Assembly: GCA_039920285.1 (NCBI GenBank)
Contig: JBDSDX010000001.1
Coordinates: 570,001 to 602,000, forward strand
Direction: 5' to 3'
DNA: 32,000 nucleotides
Source: Candidatus Saccharimonadota bacterium
GTDB taxonomy: Bacteria; Patescibacteriota; Saccharimonadia; Saccharimonadales; Saccharimonadaceae
Shown: positions 1 to 26,445 of the stretch, in pieces
Position numbering within the stretch: position 1 is the stretch's first letter
How the letters are laid out: each line of letters opens with the position of its first letter
Notes under the pieces: generated by a model
What the model was told of the DNA's origin: nothing
The model's database searches: none
Seen by the model: the letters and a program-made list of their open reading frames with translations, nothing else
Made by a program: the position numbers and the translations under genes

Positions 1-270
1 GATCAACTCTATTTCACACAAACTACTGGCTCAACTCGTAAAAAGGTTGCTATCTACGACGATACGTCAGGCGCAACTGGTGATTTATACTATCGTGATG
101 CGAGTGGCTACTTCAAACGACTTCCAATCGGGACGAGCAGTCAAATTTTGACAGCAAACGCCGGTCTTCCCACATGGCAATCTGCGAGTGGCGTCATCAA
201 CAATATGGATGGTGGTGCGGCATCGGCTATATATGGTGGAGCTATCGCCGTAAACGGAGGAGGTGCCTAG
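1..270 (+). CDS. partial CDS (3' end), phage tail-fibre/collar-like fragment
   Basis: Frame 1 is open from the window edge to TAG 268-270. The translation ...GDLYYRDASGYFKRLPIGTSSQILTANAGLPTWQSASG... resembles a motif I associate with phage tail/collar proteins. Recognised by eye only. Confidence 0.45.
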   Translation, partial: DQLYFTQTTGSTRKKVAIYDDTSGATGDLYYRDASGYFKRLPIGTSSQILTANAGLPTWQSASGVINNMDGGAASAIYGGAIAVNGGGA

Positions 271-271
271 T

Positions 272-1270
272 ATGAGTACCTTGATTCAGTTTAGGCGTGA
301 TACCCAAGCAAACTGGGCAAGTGTGAACCCAATACTCGCACAAGGTGAATTAGGTCTCGTCACTGACACGGGCGCATACAAAATGGGTGACGGCACCAAC
401 GCATGGAACACATTACCGTACCATGAGATCACTCCCGCAGTTCAGACACTGACATTCTCAAATCAAGTTGACCCTTCAACACCCGCGGCCGGCACAACTG
501 TTTTATATTCACGAACGGTTGCCGGAAGATCTTTCCCTAAATACATTGGTCCATCAGGTCTGAACAGCCCTTTGCAACCAGCTATTTTCCAAAACTCACT
601 CTGGCTGGTTCAACCGAATACAACATCATCCGTTTCTGCAATTGGTGGCGCAGTGGCGTCGGCAGGTACGCTATCAACTCCAACCCCAAACTCAACCTCA
701 TTTGGCGTTTCGACGAACTTCTTAAGTGGTGCGGTCGCGAATAACACGGCTGGAACAAGCCAGAACATTGCACCCCTCAATACCTCATCGGGCGTCGCCA
801 GCAATGGTGGTTTCTTTTTTGTCTGCCGTCTTTGGTACCCTGATGCGAACTACGGCTCAGGCTCAACAGGCTCACGTCATTTTATCGGCTTATCAGACCA
901 AACCTTCACCGCAACTGTCACCTCTGATAACCCTGCTGGATCAAGAATGGGCTTTGCAATGAGCACCAACCTTGGCGAAACAACCTTCCAATTTTCGACA
1001 AAAAATGGAACTGCAGAAACACGAACCGATACAGGAGTTTCGTTAGTATCAAATAATCTTTATGACTTTTATATATTTCTTCCTGCTGGTGGCACAACCG
1101 TATCGTGGAGAATCGATAATTTATCGACTAGCACCATAACTGAAGGTGACACGACAAGTACCATCCCTGGCACCAGTACCTATCTACGTGCAGGTTTTCA
1201 ATTGGCAACGCTCACAACCGTCGCGAGAAACGTCAGAATGAAGAAAATCTACGTCGAAACGGATAATTAG
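272..1270 (+). CDS. phage tail-fibre-like protein (HylP/Mtd-type N-terminal motif, unknown C-terminal domain)
   Basis: ATG 272 lies 8 nt after GGAGGAGG; the track ORF begins at GTG 263. The N-terminus IQFRRDTQANWASVNPILAQGELGLVTDTGAYKMGDGTNAWNTLPY matches the conserved N-terminal motif of phage hyaluronidase/tail-fibre proteins. The rest is Ser/Thr/Gly-rich. Confidence 0.65.
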   Translation: MSTLIQFRRDTQANWASVNPILAQGELGLVTDTGAYKMGDGTNAWNTLPYHEITPAVQTLTFSNQVDPSTPAAGTTVLYSRTVAGRSFPKYIGPSGLNSPLQPAIFQNSLWLVQPNTTSSVSAIGGAVASAGTLSTPTPNSTSFGVSTNFLSGAVANNTAGTSQNIAPLNTSSGVASNGGFFFVCRLWYPDANYGSGSTGSRHFIGLSDQTFTATVTSDNPAGSRMGFAMSTNLGETTFQFSTKNGTAETRTDTGVSLVSNNLYDFYIFLPAGGTTVSWRIDNLSTSTITEGDTTSTIPGTSTYLRAGFQLATLTTVARNVRMKKIYVETDN

Positions 1271-3843: not shown

Positions 3844-5265
3844 ATGAAAAAAGGAAAAGGATTACTACTACTTATATTAGCTGCGGCCCAATTTATGGTC
3901 GTGCTCGATAGTTCAATCGTAAATATTGCACTCTCATCGATCAGCACAAGTCTCGGTTTTGCACCCGAAAACCTTCAATGGGTTGTCACGGCGTATATTT
4001 TAGCGTTCGGCGGGTTCCTTCTATTTGGTGGTCGTGCAGCAGACCTCTTTGGTCGTCGAAAAGTCTTCTTATTAGGTCTGGTTGGGTTTACTATTGGCTC
4101 ACTCCTCGCTGGCGCAGCCCAGAACGAAGTCATGATGATCGTGGCTCGAGCTATACAAGGTTTGACCGCAGCATTTATGTCACCAGCAGCTCTGTCTATT
4201 ATTCTCACAGAATATAAAGAAGGTGCTGAACGCAATAAGGCGCTTGGTGTATGGGGTGCAGTTGGTGCCGGCGGTGCTGCCGCTGGTTTGATTATTGGTG
4301 GCATCGTTACCGAATACCTTGGGTGGCGTTGGGATTTCATCATCAACCTTCCTATTGGTATTGCGTTGATCGCACTTGCGTTGAAATATGTGCCGGCACA
4401 CCATTCAGAAGCTGAACACCGCGATCTTGATGCTCGTGGTGCAGTTCTCGTGACAGGTGGCTTAATGGCATTGGTCTATGGATTAACAAATGCACCGAAA
4501 TGGGGCTGGGAAGACATACAAACAATTATCTGGCTCGCGTCTTCAGTGGTTCTTATTGGATTATTCATCATAAATGAAATGCGGGTGAAACACCCATTGA
4601 TTGATTTGAAGATATTTAAGATTCGAAACCTCACTGGTGCGAACATTGTACAGCTCTTTATTACCTCTGGAATGATGTCAATGTTCTTCTTCATCTCACT
4701 CTATGTACAGCAAATCCTTGCTTACAAACCATTGATTACTGGTTTGGCGTTCTTACCATTCGCCGTTGTCGTGGGTATTACGGCGACACAATCATCACGA
4801 TTCATTGGTCGTTTTGGTCCAAAACCATTCATGATTGTCGGTCCGATCGTCATGGCAGCGGGATTGTTTATCCTCAGTCACATTAGCCTCACGTCATCGT
4901 ATGTCGAGGTCATTCTTCCGGGAATCATTGTCATGGCATTTGGTGCTGGATTAACCTTCATTGCACTCTCAGTTGCGGCAACGTCAGGTGTGCCAAAAAA
5001 TCAATCTGGACTCGCTTCAGGCCTTCTCAATACCTCTCAGCAAATCGGTGGCGCTCTAGGCCTTGCTATCCTTGCCGGCGTCGCAACCAGCACAGCAAAG
5101 GGTCACATCAGCGAGGGTATCGCATCAGCGACAGTAACTGGCTACCACACAGCCATCTTAGTAGCCTGTACGTTCGCTTTGGCTGCGGCGGTTGTAACTA
5201 TTCTCATTATTCGAAATAAAAAGAATGGTTCAAAATCCGACGAACCTATCATCGTTAGTCACTAG
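3844..5265 (+). CDS. MFS transporter, DHA2/EmrB-like 14-TMS drug:H+ antiporter family
   Basis: About 14 hydrophobic segments. N-terminal LDSSIVNIAL and GGRAADLFGRRKVF motifs typical of the family. Divergent from MarR. Confidence 0.85.
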   Translation: MKKGKGLLLLILAAAQFMVVLDSSIVNIALSSISTSLGFAPENLQWVVTAYILAFGGFLLFGGRAADLFGRRKVFLLGLVGFTIGSLLAGAAQNEVMMIVARAIQGLTAAFMSPAALSIILTEYKEGAERNKALGVWGAVGAGGAAAGLIIGGIVTEYLGWRWDFIINLPIGIALIALALKYVPAHHSEAEHRDLDARGAVLVTGGLMALVYGLTNAPKWGWEDIQTIIWLASSVVLIGLFIINEMRVKHPLIDLKIFKIRNLTGANIVQLFITSGMMSMFFFISLYVQQILAYKPLITGLAFLPFAVVVGITATQSSRFIGRFGPKPFMIVGPIVMAAGLFILSHISLTSSYVEVILPGIIVMAFGAGLTFIALSVAATSGVPKNQSGLASGLLNTSQQIGGALGLAILAGVATSTAKGHISEGIASATVTGYHTAILVACTFALAAAVVTILIIRNKKNGSKSDEPIIVSH

Positions 5266-13236: not shown

Positions 13237-13665
13237 ATGTCTTGGCCTGGCGAACCGATTCCAAGTGATCCAGCCGATGTACCGTTTAACTATGAGCGGT
13301 CTGCCTCTGTCGCTTTGGCTGATATTGCCGAAGCGAGCACACACCTTAACGATGTCTTTATGGTATTCAAGGTACTCCTCGACAGGTATAAAAAAGAGAC
13401 AGATGATGAGCTAAACAAAAAATCATTACTTCGTGTTGGCCAACATATCAAGGTATTGACGGACCGAGGTATCCACACCTCAATCAACGACCTCATACGT
13501 GAGGCTGAAGACAAGGCTCATCTCCCCTCATTCAATCCTCAGGGTGCTCGAACAGAAGGCGCAATCACAAAGGAATGGGTTGATCCCAGCGAACACTTAA
13601 ACCTTCATTCCGAATTTCTTCGGGTCATCAGTAACCTCGATACACACCCTAGTCAAAAAGGTTAA
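13237..13665 (+). CDS. hypothetical protein translationally coupled to nusG
   Basis: ATG 2 nt after the nusG TAA. 142 aa with no recognisable motif. Confidence 0.5.
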   Translation: MSWPGEPIPSDPADVPFNYERSASVALADIAEASTHLNDVFMVFKVLLDRYKKETDDELNKKSLLRVGQHIKVLTDRGIHTSINDLIREAEDKAHLPSFNPQGARTEGAITKEWVDPSEHLNLHSEFLRVISNLDTHPSQKG

Positions 13666-14203: not shown

Positions 14204-14263
14204 TGCTTTTCACTGAAGAAAAGCTTATGTTAAAAGGAGTTATTGAATAGTGAGGGGAGTCTC

Positions 14264-16051
14264 ATGCACGCCAACGAATTACACGATCAGGAACCAATAG
14301 AAGAACTGCCGACTATTGAGGAGCCAGGGTCTCCCGAAGATACTGGAGTGCAACCCGAGCAACAAACTCATGTGCCAAAAAAGAAAAAACATACCAAATT
14401 AATTGTATTGATTATCACTCTCATTATTCTGCTAGCTGGAGCTGGTGTTGCAGGGTGGTGGTTTTTCCTTAGGCAAAAACCAGTCACAGATACGACCCAA
14501 ACCTCTTCAAATACGACGAAACCTATTCCCGTTTCTGATGCAATTGCTCGATTTACCACACCAACAACTGGAGAAACATGGCTCAAGGCACCATTACCAA
14601 TCACAGATCTTGGCTATATTGCTGATGCTGATGCATCCAATGGTATTGAAGTAAAATACTACGAAGTCGGTAAACACGGTGAAAATAAGATCATTATGGC
14701 GACAGAATCGAGTATTGGTCAATATATCGAGCTGTTTGAACAAGGGCCAAACGGTGAAGCACATGTCATTACACGCCCAAACGCAAACGTTGACTACACG
14801 TTAAATAATAATGACCCCGTAAAAAGCTACGAAGGTACTGGCCACTGGGCATACAACATCATAATTGACAGTACAACACACTATGATTCACTAAGTATTC
14901 CTCTCTCCATCCAACTCAACACAACTGATGCTCTCGCACCTTCAACTTATAACTCACTTGGGTACCTTACGAACACCGATTCCGACACAACGACTCGAAC
15001 AGTTGTCAAAAAGTACGGTGGTTCGACTCTTGTTAAACTTCAACGAGCCTACGTTGATACCAAATTAACTGCGGTCAACTACGCACTGGAGCTTCCGACA
15101 GGAACAACCGTGTATCTTACGTACACACCAATCCCAGAAAAGATCGATGCCTATACATGGACAGATGGCAAGACTCGAAGTGGCACCATTAGCGGTGTCA
15201 TCCGTGGATGTGGCGCAGTCGGCTCATCAGTCAGCCGACTCGACGGCGCAACCGATGCCGACTTTGTCGCAGTCGCTAAAACGGCGGATAATCGCACTGT
15301 CTACGGTTTCAAAAACGACACTCATCCGCTCTTGAAAGTTGATTATGATGAATACATTCAGTCGTTAAGCTATCAAGATAATGCAACACCTCTTCCATTT
15401 GATGGCTACATGGCTGATCATGCAATGCTGGCATATAAGAATGGTTCAAATGAATGGCTCATCTATAGCCAAGACAAATATGCCCTCGTTGGTGGCTGCG
15501 GTAAACCAGTCGTGTACCTTTACCCGACAACAACAACCAGTGTAAACGTCAAAGTTGGCGCCAACGTGACTGTTTCAGAGCCTTTCTACAACCCTGCAAC
15601 AGGTTGGAAGAACGTTACCGCAACTCCAAGTGGCCAATTGAGCTACCAAGGAAAAAGTTACGACTCACTCTTCTGGGAAGGGACGGGATTTGGTTCATAT
15701 CCAGGTATCACCAGCGGAACGGTTGTCGCTCATGCGCAGGTTGATGCAACAATTCGTTCACAATTAACGGCTCAGGGACTTAATGCAAAAGAAACAAACG
15801 ACTTTATGGAATTCTGGGCATCGCGTATTCCGAATACCTCATATGTACGTTTGTCTTGGTTTAGCACTAAAGATCTCAATATTTTAGCTCCTCTGACTAT
15901 TAATCCAGCGCCTCAAACACTTATCCGTGTCTTCCTTGATATGCAAGGACTCGATGCATCGATCCCTATACCAAGCCAGCACTTCACAACCCCTGCTCGT
16001 AACGGCTTTACTGTTGTCGAATGGGGTGGCCTCCTGAGTGGTATCAAGTAG
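14264..16051 (+). CDS. single-pass membrane protein with large extracytoplasmic domain, unknown function
   Basis: ATG 14264 after GAGGGGAG; the track start is TTG 14243. Acidic N-terminus, KKKKHTK followed by TM helix LIVLIITLIILLAGAGVAGWWFF, then about 520 aa outside the membrane. Confidence 0.6.
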   Translation: MHANELHDQEPIEELPTIEEPGSPEDTGVQPEQQTHVPKKKKHTKLIVLIITLIILLAGAGVAGWWFFLRQKPVTDTTQTSSNTTKPIPVSDAIARFTTPTTGETWLKAPLPITDLGYIADADASNGIEVKYYEVGKHGENKIIMATESSIGQYIELFEQGPNGEAHVITRPNANVDYTLNNNDPVKSYEGTGHWAYNIIIDSTTHYDSLSIPLSIQLNTTDALAPSTYNSLGYLTNTDSDTTTRTVVKKYGGSTLVKLQRAYVDTKLTAVNYALELPTGTTVYLTYTPIPEKIDAYTWTDGKTRSGTISGVIRGCGAVGSSVSRLDGATDADFVAVAKTADNRTVYGFKNDTHPLLKVDYDEYIQSLSYQDNATPLPFDGYMADHAMLAYKNGSNEWLIYSQDKYALVGGCGKPVVYLYPTTTTSVNVKVGANVTVSEPFYNPATGWKNVTATPSGQLSYQGKSYDSLFWEGTGFGSYPGITSGTVVAHAQVDATIRSQLTAQGLNAKETNDFMEFWASRIPNTSYVRLSWFSTKDLNILAPLTINPAPQTLIRVFLDMQGLDASIPIPSQHFTTPARNGFTVVEWGGLLSGIK

Positions 16052-16089: not shown

Positions 16090-16168
16090 AGATATATAAC
16101 AATCAATGTTGGGAGGTCTTCAAGTTATTACTTGGGCCGCTTGCACCACAGAAAGGGTTTATACCTAC

Positions 16169-17179
16169 ATGGCAAAAAAAGCTGACCTGCTTGCACAGGC
16201 AAAAGAACTTGGTCTTACATTGACCGACAAGAATACTATCGCTGAAATCGAAACAGCAATTGCTGGCGTTTCAAACGCTCCAGTTGTTGAAGTTGTCGAA
16301 ATCATTGAGACTGAAGAAATCGTTGCTGACGAGAAAGTTGCCAAAGCCGGCAAACGAAGCGCAAAAGCGATTGCTGAAGTTGAAGCAAAAGAAGACAAAG
16401 AAGCGCGCAAAGAAGCAGGTGACACCACTCCTGTTGATGGCGACGCTCCTGTCGTAAAGCGTGGCGCCCGTCCCGTTACTCGTCCACTTATCGAACGACG
16501 TGGCAAAAACTACCGTAAAGTTGCCGAACAAGTCGAAAAAGACACTGTCTACACTCTTGCCGATGCGATTGAACTTGCAAGCAAGACGAATCCTTCAAAG
16601 TTTGACGCCAGTGTTGAGTTTCACGTTCGCTTGAACGTTGACCCTCGCCAAGCTGACCAAAATATTCGTACAACTGTTTCATTGCCAAACGGTACCGGTA
16701 AGAAAATTACTGTTGCTGTCTTCGCTCCTGAAGCAGATCACAAAGCAGCCAGCGCTGCTGGTGCTGACATCGTCGGTGACGAGACATTCCTCGCTCAACT
16801 CGACAAAGAAACGATCAACTTTGACGTTTTGATTGCCACACCACAATACATGCCTCGTCTTGGTAAATATGCACGTCTCCTCGGTCCACGTGGCCTCATG
16901 CCAAACCCAAAGAGCGGTTCTGTTGCAACTGACGTCGCGAAAGCCGTAACTGAAGCAAAAGCTGGTAAAGTTGAATACCGTGTCGACAAGCAAGCCATTG
17001 TTCACTTGAGCATCGGTAAAGTAAGCTTCGGTGCGGCAAAACTTCTCGAAAACGCACAAAGCTTCTTCGACAGCCTCAACAGCCAAAAGCCAACCACCAT
17101 TAAGGGAAGCTTCGTTAAGTCAATTAGCGTTAGCACCACTATGGGTCCTGGTATCAAGGTTGAGAACTTTATCAACTAA
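16169..17179 (+). CDS. rplA: 50S ribosomal protein L1 with ~110-aa N-terminal extension
   Basis: The canonical L1 sequence starts near residue 111 (RGKNYRKVAEQVEKDTVYTLADAIELA...FDASVEFHVRLNVDPRQADQNIR). The ORF continues upstream to ATG 16169 with no internal start codon. Confidence 0.9.
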   Translation: MAKKADLLAQAKELGLTLTDKNTIAEIETAIAGVSNAPVVEVVEIIETEEIVADEKVAKAGKRSAKAIAEVEAKEDKEARKEAGDTTPVDGDAPVVKRGARPVTRPLIERRGKNYRKVAEQVEKDTVYTLADAIELASKTNPSKFDASVEFHVRLNVDPRQADQNIRTTVSLPNGTGKKITVAVFAPEADHKAASAAGADIVGDETFLAQLDKETINFDVLIATPQYMPRLGKYARLLGPRGLMPNPKSGSVATDVAKAVTEAKAGKVEYRVDKQAIVHLSIGKVSFGAAKLLENAQSFFDSLNSQKPTTIKGSFVKSISVSTTMGPGIKVENFIN

Positions 17180-18013: not shown

Positions 18014-18213
18014 CGTGACTACTCCTTGAACTGTTGTTGATAAAAGTACGTTTTTGTTTGGTGGTATACTGTGGCTTGCCACTAGTGTACCATAAGCGCC
18101 ATCACTGTTGTGAAAAATTCTTATATTTTAAGAGGCTAGTGTTGATTCACTGATTGCGATACTGCATATGGTGTGCCATCATAAAAGTATTACAGCTCTT
18201 GGGGAGGAGAAAC

Positions 18214-19131
18214 ATGAAACAATATCTAGACTTACTCAAAGATATTAAAGAAAATGGTGCGGTCAAATCTGATCGTACGGGTACTGGCACAAAGAGTGTC
18301 TTTGGTCGCCAAATTCGATTTGATTTAAGTAAAGGATTTCCCGCAACCACCACCAAGCGACTCTTTTTTAGAGGCGTTGCTCACGAACTACTGTGGTTCC
18401 TAGCTGGCGACAGCAACATCAAATATTTGGTCGACAACGATGTTCACATCTGGGATGAGTGGCCGTTTAAAGCCTGGCTTAAAGCAACAGGACAAGATGT
18501 CCCCGAGACCGGTTCTGAAGAGTGGAATACAAAATTAAAAGATTATACCGAAAAAATTAAAAGTGACGATGCCTTTGCTAAAAAATACGGGTACCTTGGA
18601 CCGGTCTATGGCCACCAATGGCGCCACTGGCCCGATGGCAATGGTGGAGAAATCGACCAAATCACTGAAGTAATTGATGCGATCAAAAACAATCCAGATT
18701 CACGTCGCATGATCGTCAGTGCCTGGAATGTCGCTGATATCAAAGAAATGGCAAAGTCTGGGTTACCCCCATGTCACAGCTTGTTTCAGTTTTATGTAAA
18801 TGATGGAAAATTGAGCTGTCAGCTCTACCAACGCAGCGCCGATGTCTTCCTTGGTGTACCATTTAACATTGCGTCCTACGCGCTTCTGACCATGATGATC
18901 GCACACGTGACTGGTCTCGAACCCGGTGAATTCGTTCACAGTTTTGGCGATACACACATTTACTTGAATCATCTCGAACAGGTTGACTTACAGCTTTCAC
19001 GAACTCCAAAGGCATTACCAACTTTGAAACTCAATCCAGACGTGAAATCTATCTTTGACTTCACGATTGAAGATATGACACTCGAAGATTACAACCCAGA
19101 CCCAGGTATCAAAGCACCTATTGCGGTCTAG
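18214..19131 (+). CDS. thyA: thymidylate synthase ThyA (long form with insertion)
   Basis: ATG after [27 protein letters not shown], catalytic [12 protein letters not shown] and [20 protein letters not shown] motifs. Confidence 0.95.
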
Positions 19132-19610
19132 AGTCGAGAGTAACGAACAAAGTCGTAGGCGTATTTATTTCGTTCATCGGCTTCGTGAGATTCACGAAAG
19201 TCTTCTTGCCAAAATTCGGCATCAATATCTGGAAAAAAGACAGTCGCTGTATCGAACGTTGCTTTCACTTCGGTTGCTTCGATAATATCAGCGTCCTTTA
19301 GTGATTCAGCATATATCTGAGCTCCTCCGATAATATATATATCCTGTGTTGCAAGATCGTAGGCTTCTTCAAGGCTGTGTGCCAATTCGATACCTTCAGC
19401 CAGGTCCATAGAATGGCTGACGACAATATTCTGACGATTCGGTAATGCTCGTCCAATTGAATTATAGGTATTTCGTCCCATGATAATGGTATGGCCCGTG
19501 GTTAATTCTTTGAAATGTTTCAGATCAGCCGGCAGATCACGGAGCCATAACAAATCGTTGTTGGCACCGATTCCGTGTTTTTTATCAAAAGCGACCACGA
19601 TTGTTTTCAT
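19128..19610 (-). CDS. folA: dihydrofolate reductase
   Basis: IGANNDLLW...[28 protein letters not shown]...[10 protein letters not shown]. Confidence 0.9.
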
Positions 19611-19659
19611 GACCTTATCTTACCATGCTACAATCAATGTAAAGTGAAGGGGAGAACAG

Positions 19660-20334
19660 ATGAGCGTCTATAGCAATATAGAAATTGAACAGGCAATTAA
19701 AGATGGGCACATTATTTTCCATCCGTACCGACCGGAACATATCAACGGGAGTAGTGTCGACGTCACACTTGGTGAATATTTTTACCGAACTGACCGCAAA
19801 AGCGAGAATGCGATCTATAACCCATTCCATAAAATTGAAGTTGATAAATATTACGGTGAGCCTCAAAAAGCGATCACCCACAAAGAGTGGTGTAAGCAAA
19901 CAGGTAATAAGCCTCTCGCAAACATCCCCGCCGATCATCCTGTCATCGTCCTCGAACCAGGCGAACGTATCTTGGCACACACCAACGAGTTTATCGGTAT
20001 TTTGCCCCCGGGAACCACCAGCATGCAATCTCGCAGCACATGGGGACGCAACGGTGTTGCTGTCTGTTTTGACGCTGGCTGGGGTGACCCAGGCTACGTG
20101 AACCGCTGGACACTCGAAGTCTACAACCTCAACCAACGTCACAGTATCGTACTTCCTGTGGGTGAACGTATCGCCCAAATTGTTTTCTTCCATACCGGTG
20201 AAGTTCGTGGCACCTATGCAAGCCTTAGCGGCAAATACACACTTGGTACGAACCTTGACGAGCTCATCGCAGGCTGGACACCACAACAAATGCTCCCGCG
20301 TGCCTACAAAGACCAGCGACAGGATGCCGTCTAA
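19660..20334 (+). CDS. dcd: dCTP deaminase-family protein
   Basis: INGSSVDVTLG, SRSTWGRNG, GWGDPGY and TLEVYN...VGERIAQIVF align by eye with the Dcd/dUTPase-fold motifs. Atypical ~40-aa C-terminal tail. Confidence 0.75.
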   Translation: MSVYSNIEIEQAIKDGHIIFHPYRPEHINGSSVDVTLGEYFYRTDRKSENAIYNPFHKIEVDKYYGEPQKAITHKEWCKQTGNKPLANIPADHPVIVLEPGERILAHTNEFIGILPPGTTSMQSRSTWGRNGVAVCFDAGWGDPGYVNRWTLEVYNLNQRHSIVLPVGERIAQIVFFHTGEVRGTYASLSGKYTLGTNLDELIAGWTPQQMLPRAYKDQRQDAV

Positions 20335-22556: not shown

Positions 22557-23081
22557 ATGGCAATTACCCGCGATAAAAAGAACGAATTGGTTGCTGAAAT
22601 GGGCGAACTGTTTACAAATGCGAAAGCAACTGTTTTTGCTCAGTACAACGGTTTAAGTGTTGCGGATGTCCAAAAACTCCGCGCACAAGCTCGCGAAGCT
22701 GGCGTGGTCATTAGGGTTGTTAAAAACCGTCTTGTCCGCGTTGCTCTCGGTGAAGTCGAGGCATATAAAAACACTGATGTGTCCGGTCTGACTGGTCAAC
22801 TTCTCTACGCGATTAGCGCTGATGATGAAGTTGCACCTGCGAAGATTCTGAACACATTTGCAAAAAGTAATGACGCGCTTGTCATTGCTGGTGGATTTTC
22901 AAATGTTGGTGCTCTTTTGAGTGCTGATGATGTGAACTCTCTCGCTAGCTTGCCAAGTAAGAACCAACTTATTGGCGAAGTCATTGCGCAACTGCTTTCA
23001 CCAGTTCACGATATTACCAATGCACTTCAGGGCAACCTGCATGCGCTTTTGGATGGTATCGAAGCTAAAGCAACCAGTTAA
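22557..23081 (+). CDS. rplJ: 50S ribosomal protein L10
   Basis: AAGGAG RBS. Matches L10 over its full length. Confidence 0.95.
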   Translation: MAITRDKKNELVAEMGELFTNAKATVFAQYNGLSVADVQKLRAQAREAGVVIRVVKNRLVRVALGEVEAYKNTDVSGLTGQLLYAISADDEVAPAKILNTFAKSNDALVIAGGFSNVGALLSADDVNSLASLPSKNQLIGEVIAQLLSPVHDITNALQGNLHALLDGIEAKATS

Positions 23082-23127: not shown

Positions 23128-23502
23128 ATGGCTGATTTGAAAAAACTCGCAGAAAGCCTCGTTGGCTTAACTGTACTTGAGGTCAACGACCTTAAGACCA
23201 TTTTGAAAGAAGAATACGGTATCGAGCCAGCTGCTGCAGCTGTCGCTGTTGCCGGACCTGCTGCAGAAGCAGCACCTGCTGAAGAAGCAAAATCTGACTA
23301 CACTATCGTCCTTAAGGACGCTGGTAGCCAAAAAGTAGCAGTCATCAAGGCTGTTAAAGACATCACTGGCCTCGGCTTGGGTGAAGCAAAAGCAATCGTT
23401 GACGGTGCACCTGCTACCGTTAAAGAAAAAGCTCCTAAAGAAGAAGCTGAAGCTGCGAAGAAAACCCTCGAAGAAGCTGGCGCAACCGTCGAGCTCAACT
23501 AA
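23128..23502 (+). CDS. rplL: 50S ribosomal protein L7/L12
   Basis: N-terminal dimerisation helix, Ala/Pro/Glu hinge, and C-terminal domain [27 protein letters not shown]. Confidence 0.95.
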
Positions 23503-23701: not shown

Positions 23702-24220
23702 ATGTCTGACCTCCCTGAGAAGCAAGTCAAACGACTTCATTCATTGATTCAAGAAGCAGAAACAAACCTAGCAGCAGCCAAAGAACTGCTGATTAGCATT
23801 ATTGGTGATGACGGTACCGTTATCACCCCGAGAAGCGGCACAAACGAAGAAGTCAGCGGCAAAGTCGTTGAGGGTGTCTTCGATGGTCAAAAAATGGCCG
23901 GTCCTGACGGTAAAGAATACCCAGTTCCCGCAAACTACGCCAGTAAATCAAAGCTCGTCGAAGGGGATATCCTCAAACTTACCATTGCTGATGACGGCAG
24001 CTTTATCTACAAACAAATCGGTCCGACTGAACGAACACAGATCATTGGAACACTCGTCCAGCATGACGGTGCATACTACGTTGAAGCGAACGGTCGTGAG
24101 TACCGCATTCTTCTGGCAAGTGTGACCTATTTCCGCATCAATGTTGGCGACCAAGTCACCATCATTATCCCAACTGATAGCCCCGACGCACTGTGGGCAG
24201 CAGTCGAAGCTTCTCTCTAG
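23702..24220 (+). CDS. hypothetical protein (N-terminal helix plus beta-rich C-terminal domain)
   Basis: ATG 23702; the track start is TTG 23690. No recognisable domain. Confidence 0.55.
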   Translation: MSDLPEKQVKRLHSLIQEAETNLAAAKELLISIIGDDGTVITPRSGTNEEVSGKVVEGVFDGQKMAGPDGKEYPVPANYASKSKLVEGDILKLTIADDGSFIYKQIGPTERTQIIGTLVQHDGAYYVEANGREYRILLASVTYFRINVGDQVTIIIPTDSPDALWAAVEASL

Positions 24221-24227
24221 CTTGAAA

Positions 24228-24256
24228 TTGACTTTTATCCATTAAAGTGATATAAT
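24228..24256 (+). promoter_or_regulatory. cassette A promoter
   Basis: GAAATTGACTT...17-nt spacer...TATAAT, near consensus. Confidence 0.65.
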
Positions 24257-24331
24257 TCACCTCAGTTTTTTGCGTTTGCAATCAGCTAGTCCTGTTACAA
24301 CTCGCTCTACATGAAGGCTGGGGAAATAATC

Positions 24332-24934
24332 ATGCTTACGACATACCCGTTGTTGCTCGACATCGTCAATAACGACCACACGAGCATCAACGCGCTTAAC
24401 CGCCACGGGGTCTTTCACACGATCGCGCTGACCATGATGAGCCATCAGGAATTGATGGCGATCTACGGCCTCGGCCGACGTCGTATCGAACGCATCGAGA
24501 CAAACCTTCACACTGCCGGACTTCGGTTGCGTGATTTCTCGGAGCGTAAACTCGTGTTTCTCGACGGGCAACTGCCCGTGACGGAAGCATCCCATGCTGA
24601 GCTGCTCCACGTCTGGGTCAACTGGAAAAACCCTCAGCGCGAGGAAGGAGTACGCTACGAACCAAGTGCTGTCGCGACCGTGCTCTGCGAGAAGCAGGGG
24701 CTGACGACAGTCGGCGAGGTGTTGAGTGTTTCTTTCTGCGAAGTCACCGCTTTGCTCTTTGAGCTCAGTGGTGACGAGTGGGTGAGACTCTCTCGCTACA
24801 GCAAGTCGTTCACACAGCTCGATGACCGAGAACCGGTGATTGAACTGATGCTGACGCGACACCTCTCTCGCATCCAGCGGTGGGATCTCGACATTCCCGT
24901 TGTCATCAACGAGTCGGCCCTCATCAAGAGCTGA
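24332..24934 (+). CDS. cassette A: HhH protein, RpoA alpha-CTD-like layout
   Basis: ATG 24332 follows GGGGAAA, the SD form used by several host genes; an in-frame ATG at 24311 has no SD. G/C-rich third codon positions mark the + frame as coding. Contains TSINALNRHGVFHTIALTMMSHQELMAIYGLGRRRIERIETNLHTAGLRL. Confidence 0.6.
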   Translation: MLTTYPLLLDIVNNDHTSINALNRHGVFHTIALTMMSHQELMAIYGLGRRRIERIETNLHTAGLRLRDFSERKLVFLDGQLPVTEASHAELLHVWVNWKNPQREEGVRYEPSAVATVLCEKQGLTTVGEVLSVSFCEVTALLFELSGDEWVRLSRYSKSFTQLDDREPVIELMLTRHLSRIQRWDLDIPVVINESALIKS

Positions 24935-24945
24935 GATACAGGACA

Positions 24946-24974
24946 GCCGACCCCGCTCACAAGGCGGGATCGGC
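24946..24974 (+). other. GC-rich hairpin 3' of cassette A ORF
   Basis: GCCGA-C-CCCGC, loop TCACAAG, GCGGG-A-TCGGC: 10 bp with one C/A mismatch. Confidence 0.6.
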
Positions 24975-25015
24975 ATCGTCCCTATGAACAGGTCAATGAC
25001 GTGTTTTTAGAGACT
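24975..25015 (+). repeat. conserved 3' tail, copy A
   Basis: ATCGTCCCTATGAACAGGTCAATGACGTGTTTTTAGAGACT. 35 of 43 aligned columns are identical to copy B. Confidence 0.8.
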
Positions 25016-25033
25016 ATAACCCTTTTAGATGAA

Positions 25034-25062
25034 TTGACTTAGTTTTTTAAAAATGCTATAAT
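25034..25062 (+). promoter_or_regulatory. cassette B promoter
   Basis: GAATTGACTT...17-nt spacer...TATAAT, near consensus and similar to the cassette A promoter. Confidence 0.65.
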
Positions 25063-25137
25063 AGTTGGACTTAATCCCCAAGTATGGGGTGCGAGAGCCC
25101 CTGTACATTCCATGTTCCAATCCACCTGAAGGTACAA

Positions 25138-25641
25138 ATGAAAACCATGACTATGACACTTGATACTGTGTTCGAAGACAGCCCGCTGTCACTCAACATC
25201 ATCAAGAAGCGTCTCAAGGTTACTACGCTGGAAGAGCTGATGCTCTACACACCGATGATGATCATGAACACCTCGGGAGTTGGCAGCCCTATCGCTGCCT
25301 ACATCCGCGGTCGCTTCACGGAGCTCAACTGGGCACACCATGCCCACTTGCGTCTCCGCGACAACACCGAGTCCGTCCTGGACTTTATCGACACGATGTA
25401 CCACGCGCTGATCAATGCACCCCTAGTGGTGCTGAACTTCAGCCTGGACCACACCGGTTCGATCATTCACAAGCCGCTGGAGCTGGTCCAGATGTTCCTT
25501 GAGGTTAAGCCAGATGCCGTCGTACTCGATCTCGATGATCTTGACGACTTCCTCACGGCTAGCAACTGCCCGAAGAGCTTCATCACCGATCTCTCCAAGC
25601 GGATGATCGAGTGGAAGCTCCAGGGTCCCAGCGCAGGCTGA
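25138..25641 (+). CDS. cassette B: divergent paralogue of the cassette A HhH protein
   Basis: ATG 25138 after GAAGGT; the track start is 25084. Contains LEELMLYTPMMIMNTSGVGSPIAAYIRGRF and shares the ...LRLRD... block with protein A. G/C-rich third codon positions. Confidence 0.55.
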   Translation: MKTMTMTLDTVFEDSPLSLNIIKKRLKVTTLEELMLYTPMMIMNTSGVGSPIAAYIRGRFTELNWAHHAHLRLRDNTESVLDFIDTMYHALINAPLVVLNFSLDHTGSIIHKPLELVQMFLEVKPDAVVLDLDDLDDFLTASNCPKSFITDLSKRMIEWKLQGPSAG

Positions 25642-25663
25642 GTAGGAACATGGCACAGGGCAG

Positions 25664-25694
25664 GTCGATCCGCTTCTTCGTGAGGTGGATCGAC
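25664..25694 (+). other. GC-rich hairpin 3' of cassette B ORF
   Basis: GTCGATCCGC pairs with GTGGATCGAC (10 bp including one G-U). Its sequence is unrelated to hairpin A but it sits at the same position. Confidence 0.6.
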
Positions 25695-25737
25695 ATAGTC
25701 CCCAACAACAGGTCAAACAGACGTGTTTTTAGAGACT
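25695..25737 (+). repeat. conserved 3' tail, copy B
   Basis: ATAGTCCCCAACAACAGGTCAAACAGACGTGTTTTTAGAGACT. Confidence 0.8.
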
Positions 25738-25740
25738 TTA

Positions 25741-25769
25741 TTGCAAAACGGCTGCATAAGCACTATAGT
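25741..25769 (+). promoter_or_regulatory. tdk promoter
   Basis: TTGCAA, 17-nt spacer, TATAGT, starting 4 nt after repeat copy B. Confidence 0.5.
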
Positions 25770-25830: not shown

Positions 25831-26445
25831 GTGTCGAAACTTCATTTTAAGTACGGGGCGATGAATAGCGGTAAAAGCGATACGCTTATTAAAACTGCCT
25901 ACAATTATTTAGAGCGTGGCCTTTCAATCGTTGTTTTGAAACCGAGTGTTGATACAAAAGGTGATACACAGATCATTGCTCGTGGTGGCGCTCAGCGCAC
26001 GGTTGATATCCTCGCGACACCCGACCTTGATCTCCGCATAGCAGTAAAGAAGTTCGCCAAAGACAATGCCATTACCCATCTCTCATGCATCCTTATCGAC
26101 GAGGCTCAATTTTTGACTCCTGATCAGATCGATCAGTTATTTTCGATTGCTAAAGAAGACCAGACATCTGTTATAGCCTATGGACTCAGAGCTGATTTCC
26201 AAACAAAACTCTTTCCTGGGAGCAAGCGCCTTATTGAACTTGCGGACAATATCGAAAAACTCCCAACGATGTGTCGTTGTGGCAACCAAGCCGAGTTTAA
26301 CTGTCGCAAGGTAAACGACCAGTATATATTCGAAGGAGAACAAGTCGCAATTGATGGTGAAGGGAGCGTGACGTACGACTCGCTCTGCGGAACATGTTAT
26401 TTAACAGAGAAGGCGCTCGCAGCGTCCAAAAACACAACGAAATAG
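25831..26445 (+). CDS. tdk: thymidine kinase
   Basis: GTG start after GGGGGAAA. GAMNSGKS P-loop, IDEAQF motif and C-terminal zinc-ribbon cysteines (CRCG...CGTC). Confidence 0.9.
   Translation: MSKLHFKYGAMNSGKSDTLIKTAYNYLERGLSIVVLKPSVDTKGDTQIIARGGAQRTVDILATPDLDLRIAVKKFAKDNAITHLSCILIDEAQFLTPDQIDQLFSIAKEDQTSVIAYGLRADFQTKLFPGSKRLIELADNIEKLPTMCRCGNQAEFNCRKVNDQYIFEGEQVAIDGEGSVTYDSLCGTCYLTEKALAASKNTTK

Follow-up and report, generated by a model that had tools for sequence, protein, structure and literature searches.

How can two adjacent genes, whose coding sequences can no longer be aligned as nucleotides, end in 3' elements that are still plainly alike? The question is raised by a 32,000-nucleotide stretch (hereafter the window) from the genome of a Candidatus Saccharimonadota bacterium (GenBank assembly GCA_039920285.1, contig JBDSDX010000001.1, positions 570,001 to 602,000; genome GC ~46%; an identical 3.2-kb Logan contig is L006). 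The two genes lie in tandem as cassettes, c1 and c2, with open reading frames (ORFs) at 24332-24934 (+ strand, 200 aa, GC 56%) and 25138-25641 (+ strand, 167 aa, GC 55%), and both encode proteins like the carboxy-terminal domain of the RNA polymerase alpha subunit (alpha-CTD), c2 being a very distant paralogue of c1 with the same alpha-CTD-like N-terminus. Each ORF is followed by a GC-rich hairpin, HP1, and then by a second and longer one, HP2, which an original prediction made from the sequence alone had described as a conserved tail. That prediction was right that the ORFs are unalignable as nucleotides (57% identity against 54% for shuffles), and it had drawn from this the further claim that the element itself is directly selected. 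The answer that we hold to be somewhat better than an even bet is that HP1 and HP2 together terminate the transcript and stabilise its 3' end, as a module of an autonomous, moron-like cassette that has been duplicated in tandem; the module would be structurally selected and homogenised between its copies.

The hairpins themselves provide the first part of the evidence. HP1 of c1 occupies 24946-24974 (+ strand) and is a GC-rich structure of 11 pairs, including one C.A mismatch, with a 7-nt loop and no U tract after it; HP1 of c2 occupies 25664-25694 (+ strand). These are the positions at which GC-rich hairpins had been placed after both stop codons, but the accompanying statement that the two are unrelated in sequence has to be given up. 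The stems, GCCGACCCCGC...GCGGGATCGGC in c1 and GTCGATCCGC...GTGGATCGAC in c2, have in common the base GYCGAYCC...GGATCGRC; the second pair is C:G in c1 and T:A in c2, a compensatory change, and the sixth is a C.A mismatch in c1 against T:A in c2. Judged by these stems, the HP1 hairpins of the two cassettes are homologous. The tails that follow, at 24975-25015 (+ strand, c1) and 25695-25737 (+ strand, c2, with TTTATT after it), are 41 and 43 nt long and identical at 35-36 of 43 columns, in agreement with the 35 counted originally. They include two blocks identical in c1 and c2, AACAGGTCAA (10 nt) and ACGTGTTTTTAGAGACT (17 nt); the 17-mer occurs in the window only at the two tail sites, where 0.09 would be expected by chance, and for the longer tail pattern the expectation is 0.00. 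A small stem-loop had been proposed within the tail, and its inner stem, AACAGGTC/GACGTGTT, is indeed present with one G-G mismatch and with the sole indel in the loop (3 versus 5 nt), a difference that a hairpin tolerates and that favors a role as one. It is, though, only the inner part of a long imperfect hairpin, GTCCC..AACAGGTC-loop-GACGTGTT..AGAGAC, into which the whole tail folds, so that the T run (T5 in c1) lies inside the 3' arm and not beyond a small stem. The two HP2 copies fold at -14.6 and -10.9 kcal/mol (z = -4.1 and -3.3), and the whole 3' region reaches z scores from -4.1 to -6.1 over both strands, those of the + strand being -5.9 and -4.4.

The pairing of both hairpins has also been kept in related genomes. 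Syntenic loci (numbered with the prefix L) were fetched through the neighbouring gene for a 172-aa protein (90% cluster, 146 members) and by an exhaustive HMMER search with c1, and the orthologous or homologous cassettes of L026, L010, and L017 proved to end in HP1 and HP2 as well. In L026, HP1 reads GCCGATCCGCCC-TTCG-GGGTGGGTCGGC, and HP2, GTGATCCCTAGAAACAGG-TAAAAA-CGTGTTACTAGGGATCAC, is almost perfectly paired. The L010 cassette, which encodes an alpha-CTD-like protein of 177 aa, has GCCGACC...GGTCGGC as its HP1, and its HP2, ATCCCCGAATACATAT-AGCA-ATATGTCGTCGGGGAT then TTTTATTT (arms ATCCCCGA..TCGGGGA, then TTTTTATTT), is a canonical intrinsic terminator. When c1, c2, L026, L010, and L017 were folded jointly with RNAalifold, both hairpins were recovered with 28 pairs, 12 of which have changed on both sides; standard pairs fill 87.9% of the cells, a share that falls to 33-46% if partners are displaced by 1-3 columns, and none of 500 shuffles reached the observed covariation. 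At closer range, the 85-nt element differs between L010 and L017 at 4 positions, all of them unpaired (HP1 bulge, HP2 loop), the ORFs being 85.8% and the flanking genes 91-93% identical. On this comparative evidence (the recovered pairing, the covariation, and the confinement of strain-level substitutions to unpaired positions), both hairpins are under structural selection. The original claim of direct selection on the element is upheld to this extent, by the compensatory changes and the unpaired-only substitutions; the argument then used for it, that the ORFs had diverged and the tail had not, was overstated.

This is because the contrast between ORF and tail arises mostly from the ORFs. Between the window and L026, amino acid identity is 98% for rplL, 95% for the 172-aa gene, 89% for dnaX, and 87% for tdk, but only 34% for the cassette ORF, the nucleotide identity of which (57%) is close to the shuffled level (54%). 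For the noncoding segments, nucleotide identity is 70% in the 3' element, 71% in the promoter and 5' untranslated region (5'UTR), and 79% in the 5' region of tdk. The cassette flanks have thus diverged at about intergenic rates, and the anomaly, as read from these comparisons, is a hyperdivergent coding region and not an unusually frozen tail. More generally, a conserved noncoding flank beside unalignable ORFs can reflect hyperdivergent coding combined with concerted evolution and need not be a new signal. There are also possible traces of concerted evolution here. The c1 and c2 tails are 84% identical to each other, and 10 tail states are shared by c1 and c2 against L026, whereas 3 are common to c1 and L026 only and 1 to c2 and L026 only, a distribution that points to gene conversion or recombination and not to selection alone. 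Furthermore, L026 has an HP1 that, TTCG loop included, is nearer to that of c2 than to that of c1, in contrast to its promoter, 5'UTR, and ORF, which are of the c1 type. Such a mosaic, though drawn from small numbers, speaks for exchange between the tandem 3' elements, whether by gene conversion or by unequal crossing-over.

The autonomy of the cassettes is apparent at their 5' ends. The promoters, TTGACT-17-(TG)TATAAT in both cases, lie at 24228-24256 (+ strand) for c1 and 25034-25062 (+ strand) for c2, match 11 of 12 consensus positions, and have an extended -10 TG; that of c1 has homologues in the L026 and L010 promoters. The pattern TTGAC-N17-19-TATAAT occurs nowhere else in the 32-kb window, where 0.06 sites would be expected. 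The duplicated unit extends from the -35 region to the end of HP2 (~24226-25015 and 25032-25737), leaving 16 nt between the copies, and a promoter-like site for tdk (25741-25769) comes after the c2 HP2 and TTTATT. Upstream, the c1 promoter begins 8 nt past the stop codon of the 172-aa gene with no hairpin in between, and this gene has no terminator of its own wherever a cassette comes next; read-through from it must therefore end at the cassette 3' module.

A further and suggestive feature of the sequences is that each cassette ORF is bracketed by complementary segments, one centred on GTCC in the 5'UTR and one centred on GGAC between the stop codon and HP1. In c1, GTCCTGT (24289-24295, + strand) is complementary to ACAGGAC (24938-24944, + strand), which begins 3 nt past the stop codon. 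In c2, the left arm, GCCCCTGT and CCATGTTCC (25097-25118, + strand), pairs as 9 + 6 bp with the right arm, GGAACATGG and ACAGGGC (25645-25661, + strand), through CCATGTTCC/GGAACATGG and CCCTGT/ACAGGG, at a duplex energy of -23.8 kcal/mol that 8 of 1000 shuffles equal. The corresponding pairings are GTCCTGTGAG/CTCACAGGAC plus ACTCA/TGAGT in L026, CCTACTA/TAGTAGG plus 4 more pairs in L010, and TGTCCTTT/AAAGGACA plus more in L028. Complementarity is thus seen in all five alpha-CTD-like cassettes with a different helix sequence in each, and shuffles of the cassette's own 5'UTR did as well in 13, 8, 0, 8, and 0 of 1000 cases, respectively. These RNAduplex values refer to the short stop-to-HP1 segment, which was used instead of long 3' segments that gave no discrimination. 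The helix between the ends is also contained in folds of the full-length transcripts, with probability 0.86-1.0, but 2 of 15 other genes of the window (rplL and orf142) reach equally high predicted end pairing, and whole-transcript folding was accordingly down-weighted as evidence. The complementarity may be an mRNA 5'-3' clamp or a DNA-level inverted repeat.

Searches for further copies confined the element to this setting. Rfam covariance models returned nothing relevant between 23000 and 27000 at E <= 10. A search for the core motif, which the original prediction had proposed, gave only chance matches: 3 for GGTCAA-N1-7-ACGTGTTTTTAGAG in 185,579 GTDB species representatives and 2 in JGI metagenomes, all of them without a hairpin or matching context, and 0 for the stricter CAGGTCAA-N1-7-ACGTGTTTTTAGAG in IMG/VR viral contigs, these collections being ones that exclude the window's own genome. 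The covariance model of hairpin plus tail, also proposed there and built here from five sequences of HP1 and HP2 (R1), detected no additional copy, whether in the window or in 13 related loci, its extra matches being reverse-strand echoes of the palindromes only. The exact motif is, then, not a widespread signal, and over the ground covered by these searches the HP1-HP2 element is tied to the cassette gene family at its locus.

From the repeats, their structure and covariation, the synteny, and the relative rates, we infer the following mechanism. Each cassette would consist of a strong sigma-70-type promoter, a 5'UTR, a GC-rich alpha-CTD-like ORF, HP1, and HP2, with two tandem paralogous copies placed between the 172-aa gene and tdk. 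In the mRNA, the short sequence just past the stop codon could pair in vivo with the 5'UTR; HP1, as a very stable hairpin without a U tract, would block 3'-exonucleases and aid 3'-end formation; and HP2 would be an intrinsic terminator or derive from one, with a U-rich stretch behind the c2 copy and with a degenerate c1 copy. The module would in this way end both the cassette transcript and the read-through from the 172-aa gene. The identity of the c1 and c2 tails would have three sources: the entire cassette is inherited from one ancestor, purifying selection acts on the structure, and the direct repeats are homogenised by gene conversion or unequal crossing-over, with the coding regions meanwhile diverging exceptionally fast. 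Among the roles that had originally been offered, that of a terminator or 3'-end signal fits best: HP2 of L010 is a canonical one, and sites without a cassette have a plain terminator in the same place. At the empty site of L030, this is a single terminator, GCCGTCCC-TCA-GGGGGCGG plus TTTTTTATTTGC, after which come the same TTTTTATTTGC and tdk promoter region as downstream of the L010 HP2.

Several observations weigh against this reading. The covariation is based on only about 4 independent sequences, and the search for further copies spanned 32 kb of a 795-kb genome. HP1 has no U tract in any genome, and HP2 has none after c1 and in L026, so that these copies are not canonical intrinsic terminators; a terminator consensus scan called neither copy in the window, and a U-rich tract follows HP2 only in L010 and L017 (TTTTTATTT) and, in part, in c2 (TTTATT). 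In addition, the HP2 copies of the window contain 1-2 C.A mismatches when read on the + strand; on the - strand these would become G.U pairs, and folding is slightly more favorable there. Counts of wobble pairs (about 2 G.U on the + strand) and of mismatches (about 4 C.A) do not settle which strand is functional.

The same site in relatives allows the alternatives to be weighed. Downstream of the 172-aa gene lies a hot spot that carries 0, 1, or 2 cassettes. There is no cassette in L030-L035, where tdk is next, nor in L007, which also lacks tdk; one homologous cassette precedes tdk in L026/L027, L010-L017, and L028, that of L026 encoding the protein P0021 with the same promoter and 5'UTR as in the window; two tandem GC-rich ORFs of ~100 aa from an unrelated family are found in L036-L045; and a protein of 211-214 aa with an HExxH motif is encoded in L018-L025 and L046-L049. 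The paralogous ~100-aa ORFs (L037 2732-3900, and likewise in the others of L036-L045) each have their own promoter, a c1-like GTCCTGTT(A/G)C motif in the 5'UTR, and AGGAC followed by a terminator hairpin, and this shared promoter, motif, and AGGAC-hairpin end would make up a chassis common to different cargo genes. The HExxH protein (L018 4589-5224; L046 3078-3722) has a weak match to the Peptidase_M91 "effector" family, and tdk is absent from these loci. In L007, the space between rplL and a 175-aa gene is occupied by a different GC-rich orphan ORF of 185 aa (4160-4830, - strand), which has a TTGACA-17-TATAGT promoter of its own as well as a GC hairpin and uses the rplL terminator region.

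This turnover lends some appeal to an alternative that operates on DNA, although we regard it as unlikely. The ~70-nt direct repeats, perhaps folded as single strands, would be sites of cassette gain, duplication, and deletion through unequal homologous crossing-over or a recombinase acting in trans, and their conservation would reflect recombination and not RNA function. It is consistent with such a role that c2 is bracketed exactly by the two repeats, that they have the 17-nt identical core, that folding of the window copies is no worse on the - strand, that the hot spot houses at least three unrelated ORF families in relatives, and that L026 joins a c1-type 5' end and ORF to a c2-like HP1 in addition to the 10 tail states setting c1 and c2 apart from it. 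On the other hand, no integrase, transposase, or reverse transcriptase is encoded among the ~40 Pfam-scanned ORFs of the window, and there are neither target-site duplications nor integron core sites. The motif is absent from the other genomes and viral contigs that were scanned; homologous cassettes always lie at the same locus and in the same orientation, as vertical descent predicts; and HP2 of L010 is simply a terminator. The recombination site that had been entertained originally thus keeps indirect support from the mosaic of HP1 and tail but is left without a recombinase in the window.

A doubtful extension would unite the two roles. The position downstream of rplJL and the 172-aa gene in this small-genome lineage would then be an expression slot with a conserved chassis (the consensus promoter, the GTCC...GGAC clamp between 5'UTR and 3'UTR, and HP1 with HP2), in which hypervariable genes are swapped, duplicated, or deleted at the chassis repeats; the 3' element would be at once an RNA 3'-end module and a recombination joint, with no integrase needed. 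Its cargo could comprise RNA polymerase alpha-CTD mimics and at least one unrelated family of ~100 aa with the same GTCCTGTTAC motif in the 5'UTR and an end made of AGGAC and a hairpin.

We give equally little credence to the opposite proposition, that the element has no function of its own. On this view, gene conversion would have preserved the likeness of what is no more than a tandem-duplication residue, with hairpins that are terminators in decay. The greater identity of the c1 and c2 tails to each other than to the orthologue (84% versus 70%) would be expected of such a residue, as would the mismatches of HP2 in the window, the loss of the U tract after c1, and the absence of the motif from all other scanned collections. 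Mere residue does not explain, however, why both hairpins keep their pairing across genomes through compensatory changes or why substitutions between close strains avoid the stems, and the ORFs and the bodies of the 5'UTRs have been fully randomised between c1 and c2. The least credible alternative, and a highly improbable one, is the operator that the original prediction had considered for the encoded proteins. Here the cassette's own alpha-CTD-like proteins, or another regulator, would recognise the imperfect palindrome ACAGGTC-N-GACGTGT or the A/T run in double-stranded DNA. In its favor, both ORFs have a helix-hairpin-helix (HhH) fold of a domain type that binds A/T-rich DNA, the G-G "mismatch" of the inner stem is kept in c1, c2, and L026, and the tails lie just upstream of the next promoter, but the half-sites of one copy are spaced 2 bp differently from those of the other, which speaks against binding by a dimer, the next -35 hexamer downstream lies 18 nt away in one case and 3 nt in the other, the cassettes' own promoters have no matching site, and L010 has an entirely different inner sequence with the pairing kept, which is the signature of a hairpin and not of an operator.

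In a word-indexed search of 5.8 billion proteins, c1 and c2 each matched only themselves, and the family alignment retrieved only 3 of its own 5 input members; P0021, the orthologue of c1 at the same locus in L026 (36% identity, E = 3e-30), was missed there and recovered by the exhaustive HMMER search. Matches to the Pfam family RNA_pol_A_CTD were obtained for c1, P0033, and P0040, all of them sub-threshold, and phmmer linked residues ~10-80 of c1 to proteins with repeated alpha-CTDs, such as P0022 with 7 RNA_pol_A_CTD stretches. AlphaFold2 models of c1 and c2 (predicted local distance difference test scores of 73.5 and 82.7, the c2 alignment including the c1 family) matched almost exclusively RNA polymerase alpha-CTD structures in Foldseek, for example that of B. 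subtilis (target-normalised TM-score 0.70, root mean square deviation 1.1 Å over 51 columns). The two proteins have in common the order of their secondary-structure elements, an LRLRD motif, and a C-terminal R-x-x-x-W-x-L motif. Going by the models, c1 and c2 are free-standing RNA polymerase alpha-CTD-like proteins, which renders more exactly the correct original description of them as HhH proteins. Across c1, the - strand has an antisense ORF of 239 aa (24257-24976), which exceeds the sense ORF in length. Because the 36%-identical orthologue and the alpha-CTD fold belong to the + strand product, this antisense frame is probably an artefact of the GC-rich sequence. As for their source, tblastn against 50,697 phage records found no phage homologues of the cassette proteins, and a phage origin was set aside. 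The alpha-CTD-like proteins are ~34% identical between genomes whose housekeeping proteins are ~90-98% identical; together with the only two near-consensus promoters in 32 kb and the turnover of cassettes, this divergence suggests a function in an arms race, for instance interference with transcription in a host or competitor. We consider this hypervariable alpha-CTD-like cassette hot spot around the element to be the more interesting lead.

In the wider neighbourhood, the order of genes is rplJ (22557-23081), rplL (23128-23502), the highly conserved 172-aa gene (23702-24220), c1, c2, tdk (25831-26445), dnaX, and dnaB. The 172-aa protein belongs to no Pfam family, and some sources name it a PrlF/AbrB-like antitoxin or regulator. 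Farther upstream, the nusG-rplK-rplA cluster is interrupted by ORFs of 142 aa and 602 aa that belong to no Pfam family (13237-13665 and 14243-16051), and the rplA product (16106-17179), 357 aa long, is extended at its N-terminus by ~150 aa. At 18154-20334, the window encodes ThyA and DHFR beside dcd and tmk, whereas L007 (1-843) has ThyX (Thy1) there, so that the type of thymidylate synthase is swapped between close relatives. Finally, a 335-aa ORF at 263-1270 (+ strand) contains the Pfam Mtd_N domain, the N-terminus of the major tropism determinant (E = 1.9e-13). Mtd_N proteins are typical targets of diversity-generating retroelements, but such a system was rejected for the cassettes: the window has no reverse transcriptase and no pair of template and variable repeats, and c1 and c2 have diverged across the entire ORF and not only in a C-terminal variable region.

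Among known systems, several that the locus calls to mind at first sight can be distinguished from it. A CRISPR repeat, with which GTTTTTAGAG has a resemblance of the type II kind, was rejected, as the two copies lie 720 nt apart with a gene between them and form no array. Like repetitive extragenic palindromic sequences and bacterial interspersed mosaic elements, the hairpins are imperfect palindromes 3' of genes and could stabilise the upstream mRNA; over the 32 kb and the 13 related loci searched, this class was set aside, as only the two copies of the window were seen, both tied to one gene family, and none dispersed. With the attC cassettes of integrons the locus shares the succession of an ORF and a structured imperfect palindrome, conservation of structure above sequence, and a tandem arrangement, but the cassettes here carry their own promoters and form a family at one locus. 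RYYYAAC/GTTRRRY cores are lacking: of the 7-mers ending in AAC (TATGAAC, CCCCAAC, CAACAAC), none begins with a purine, and GTTTTTA stands in place of GTTRRRY. The 11-of-12 promoters and the lack of an integrase in the window likewise led us to reject an integron cassette.

Other systems are closer. Base pairing between 5'UTR and 3'UTR occurs in type I toxin mRNAs such as hok. It has also been described for icaR of S. aureus (PMC3868564) and hbs of B. subtilis (PMC5737220), and the cassettes resemble all of these in the complementarity of the 5'UTR to the first nucleotides of the 3'UTR but differ from them in that the predicted pairing lies mostly off the ribosome-binding site. As for the cassette as a whole, phage morons are autonomous units of promoter, ORF, and terminator with a deviant base composition. 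The cassettes are similar: a near-consensus promoter of their own precedes one ORF with a terminator-like end, conserved genes lie on either side, the GC content is 55-59% as against 46% for the genome, and some relatives lack the unit (empty sites in L030 and L007), although in this case the setting is a chromosomal housekeeping region (rplJL...tdk-dnaX-dnaB) and not a prophage. The moron concept is mentioned in PMC4378225.

For the 3' element itself, the nearest counterparts are intrinsic terminators, including tandem ones and those without a U tract. The resemblance lies in stable GC-rich stem-loops directly past the stop codon, in stems kept by compensatory change with loops that vary freely, and in the canonical form of both the L010 HP2 and the terminator of the empty site in L030; the differences are that a U tract never follows HP1 and is missing from HP2 after c1 and in L026 and that, in the window copies, the T5 run forms part of the 3' arm of HP2. 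What the element adds is a lineage-specific, structure-conserved two-hairpin module of the 3'UTR and terminator, and little changes otherwise; together with the putative 5'-3' clamp, it offers a defined point of attack for tests of expression control in organisms difficult to culture. It is not a new type of element but an ordinary kind of regulatory module, namely that of terminator-type 3'UTR hairpins, in a form specific to this lineage.

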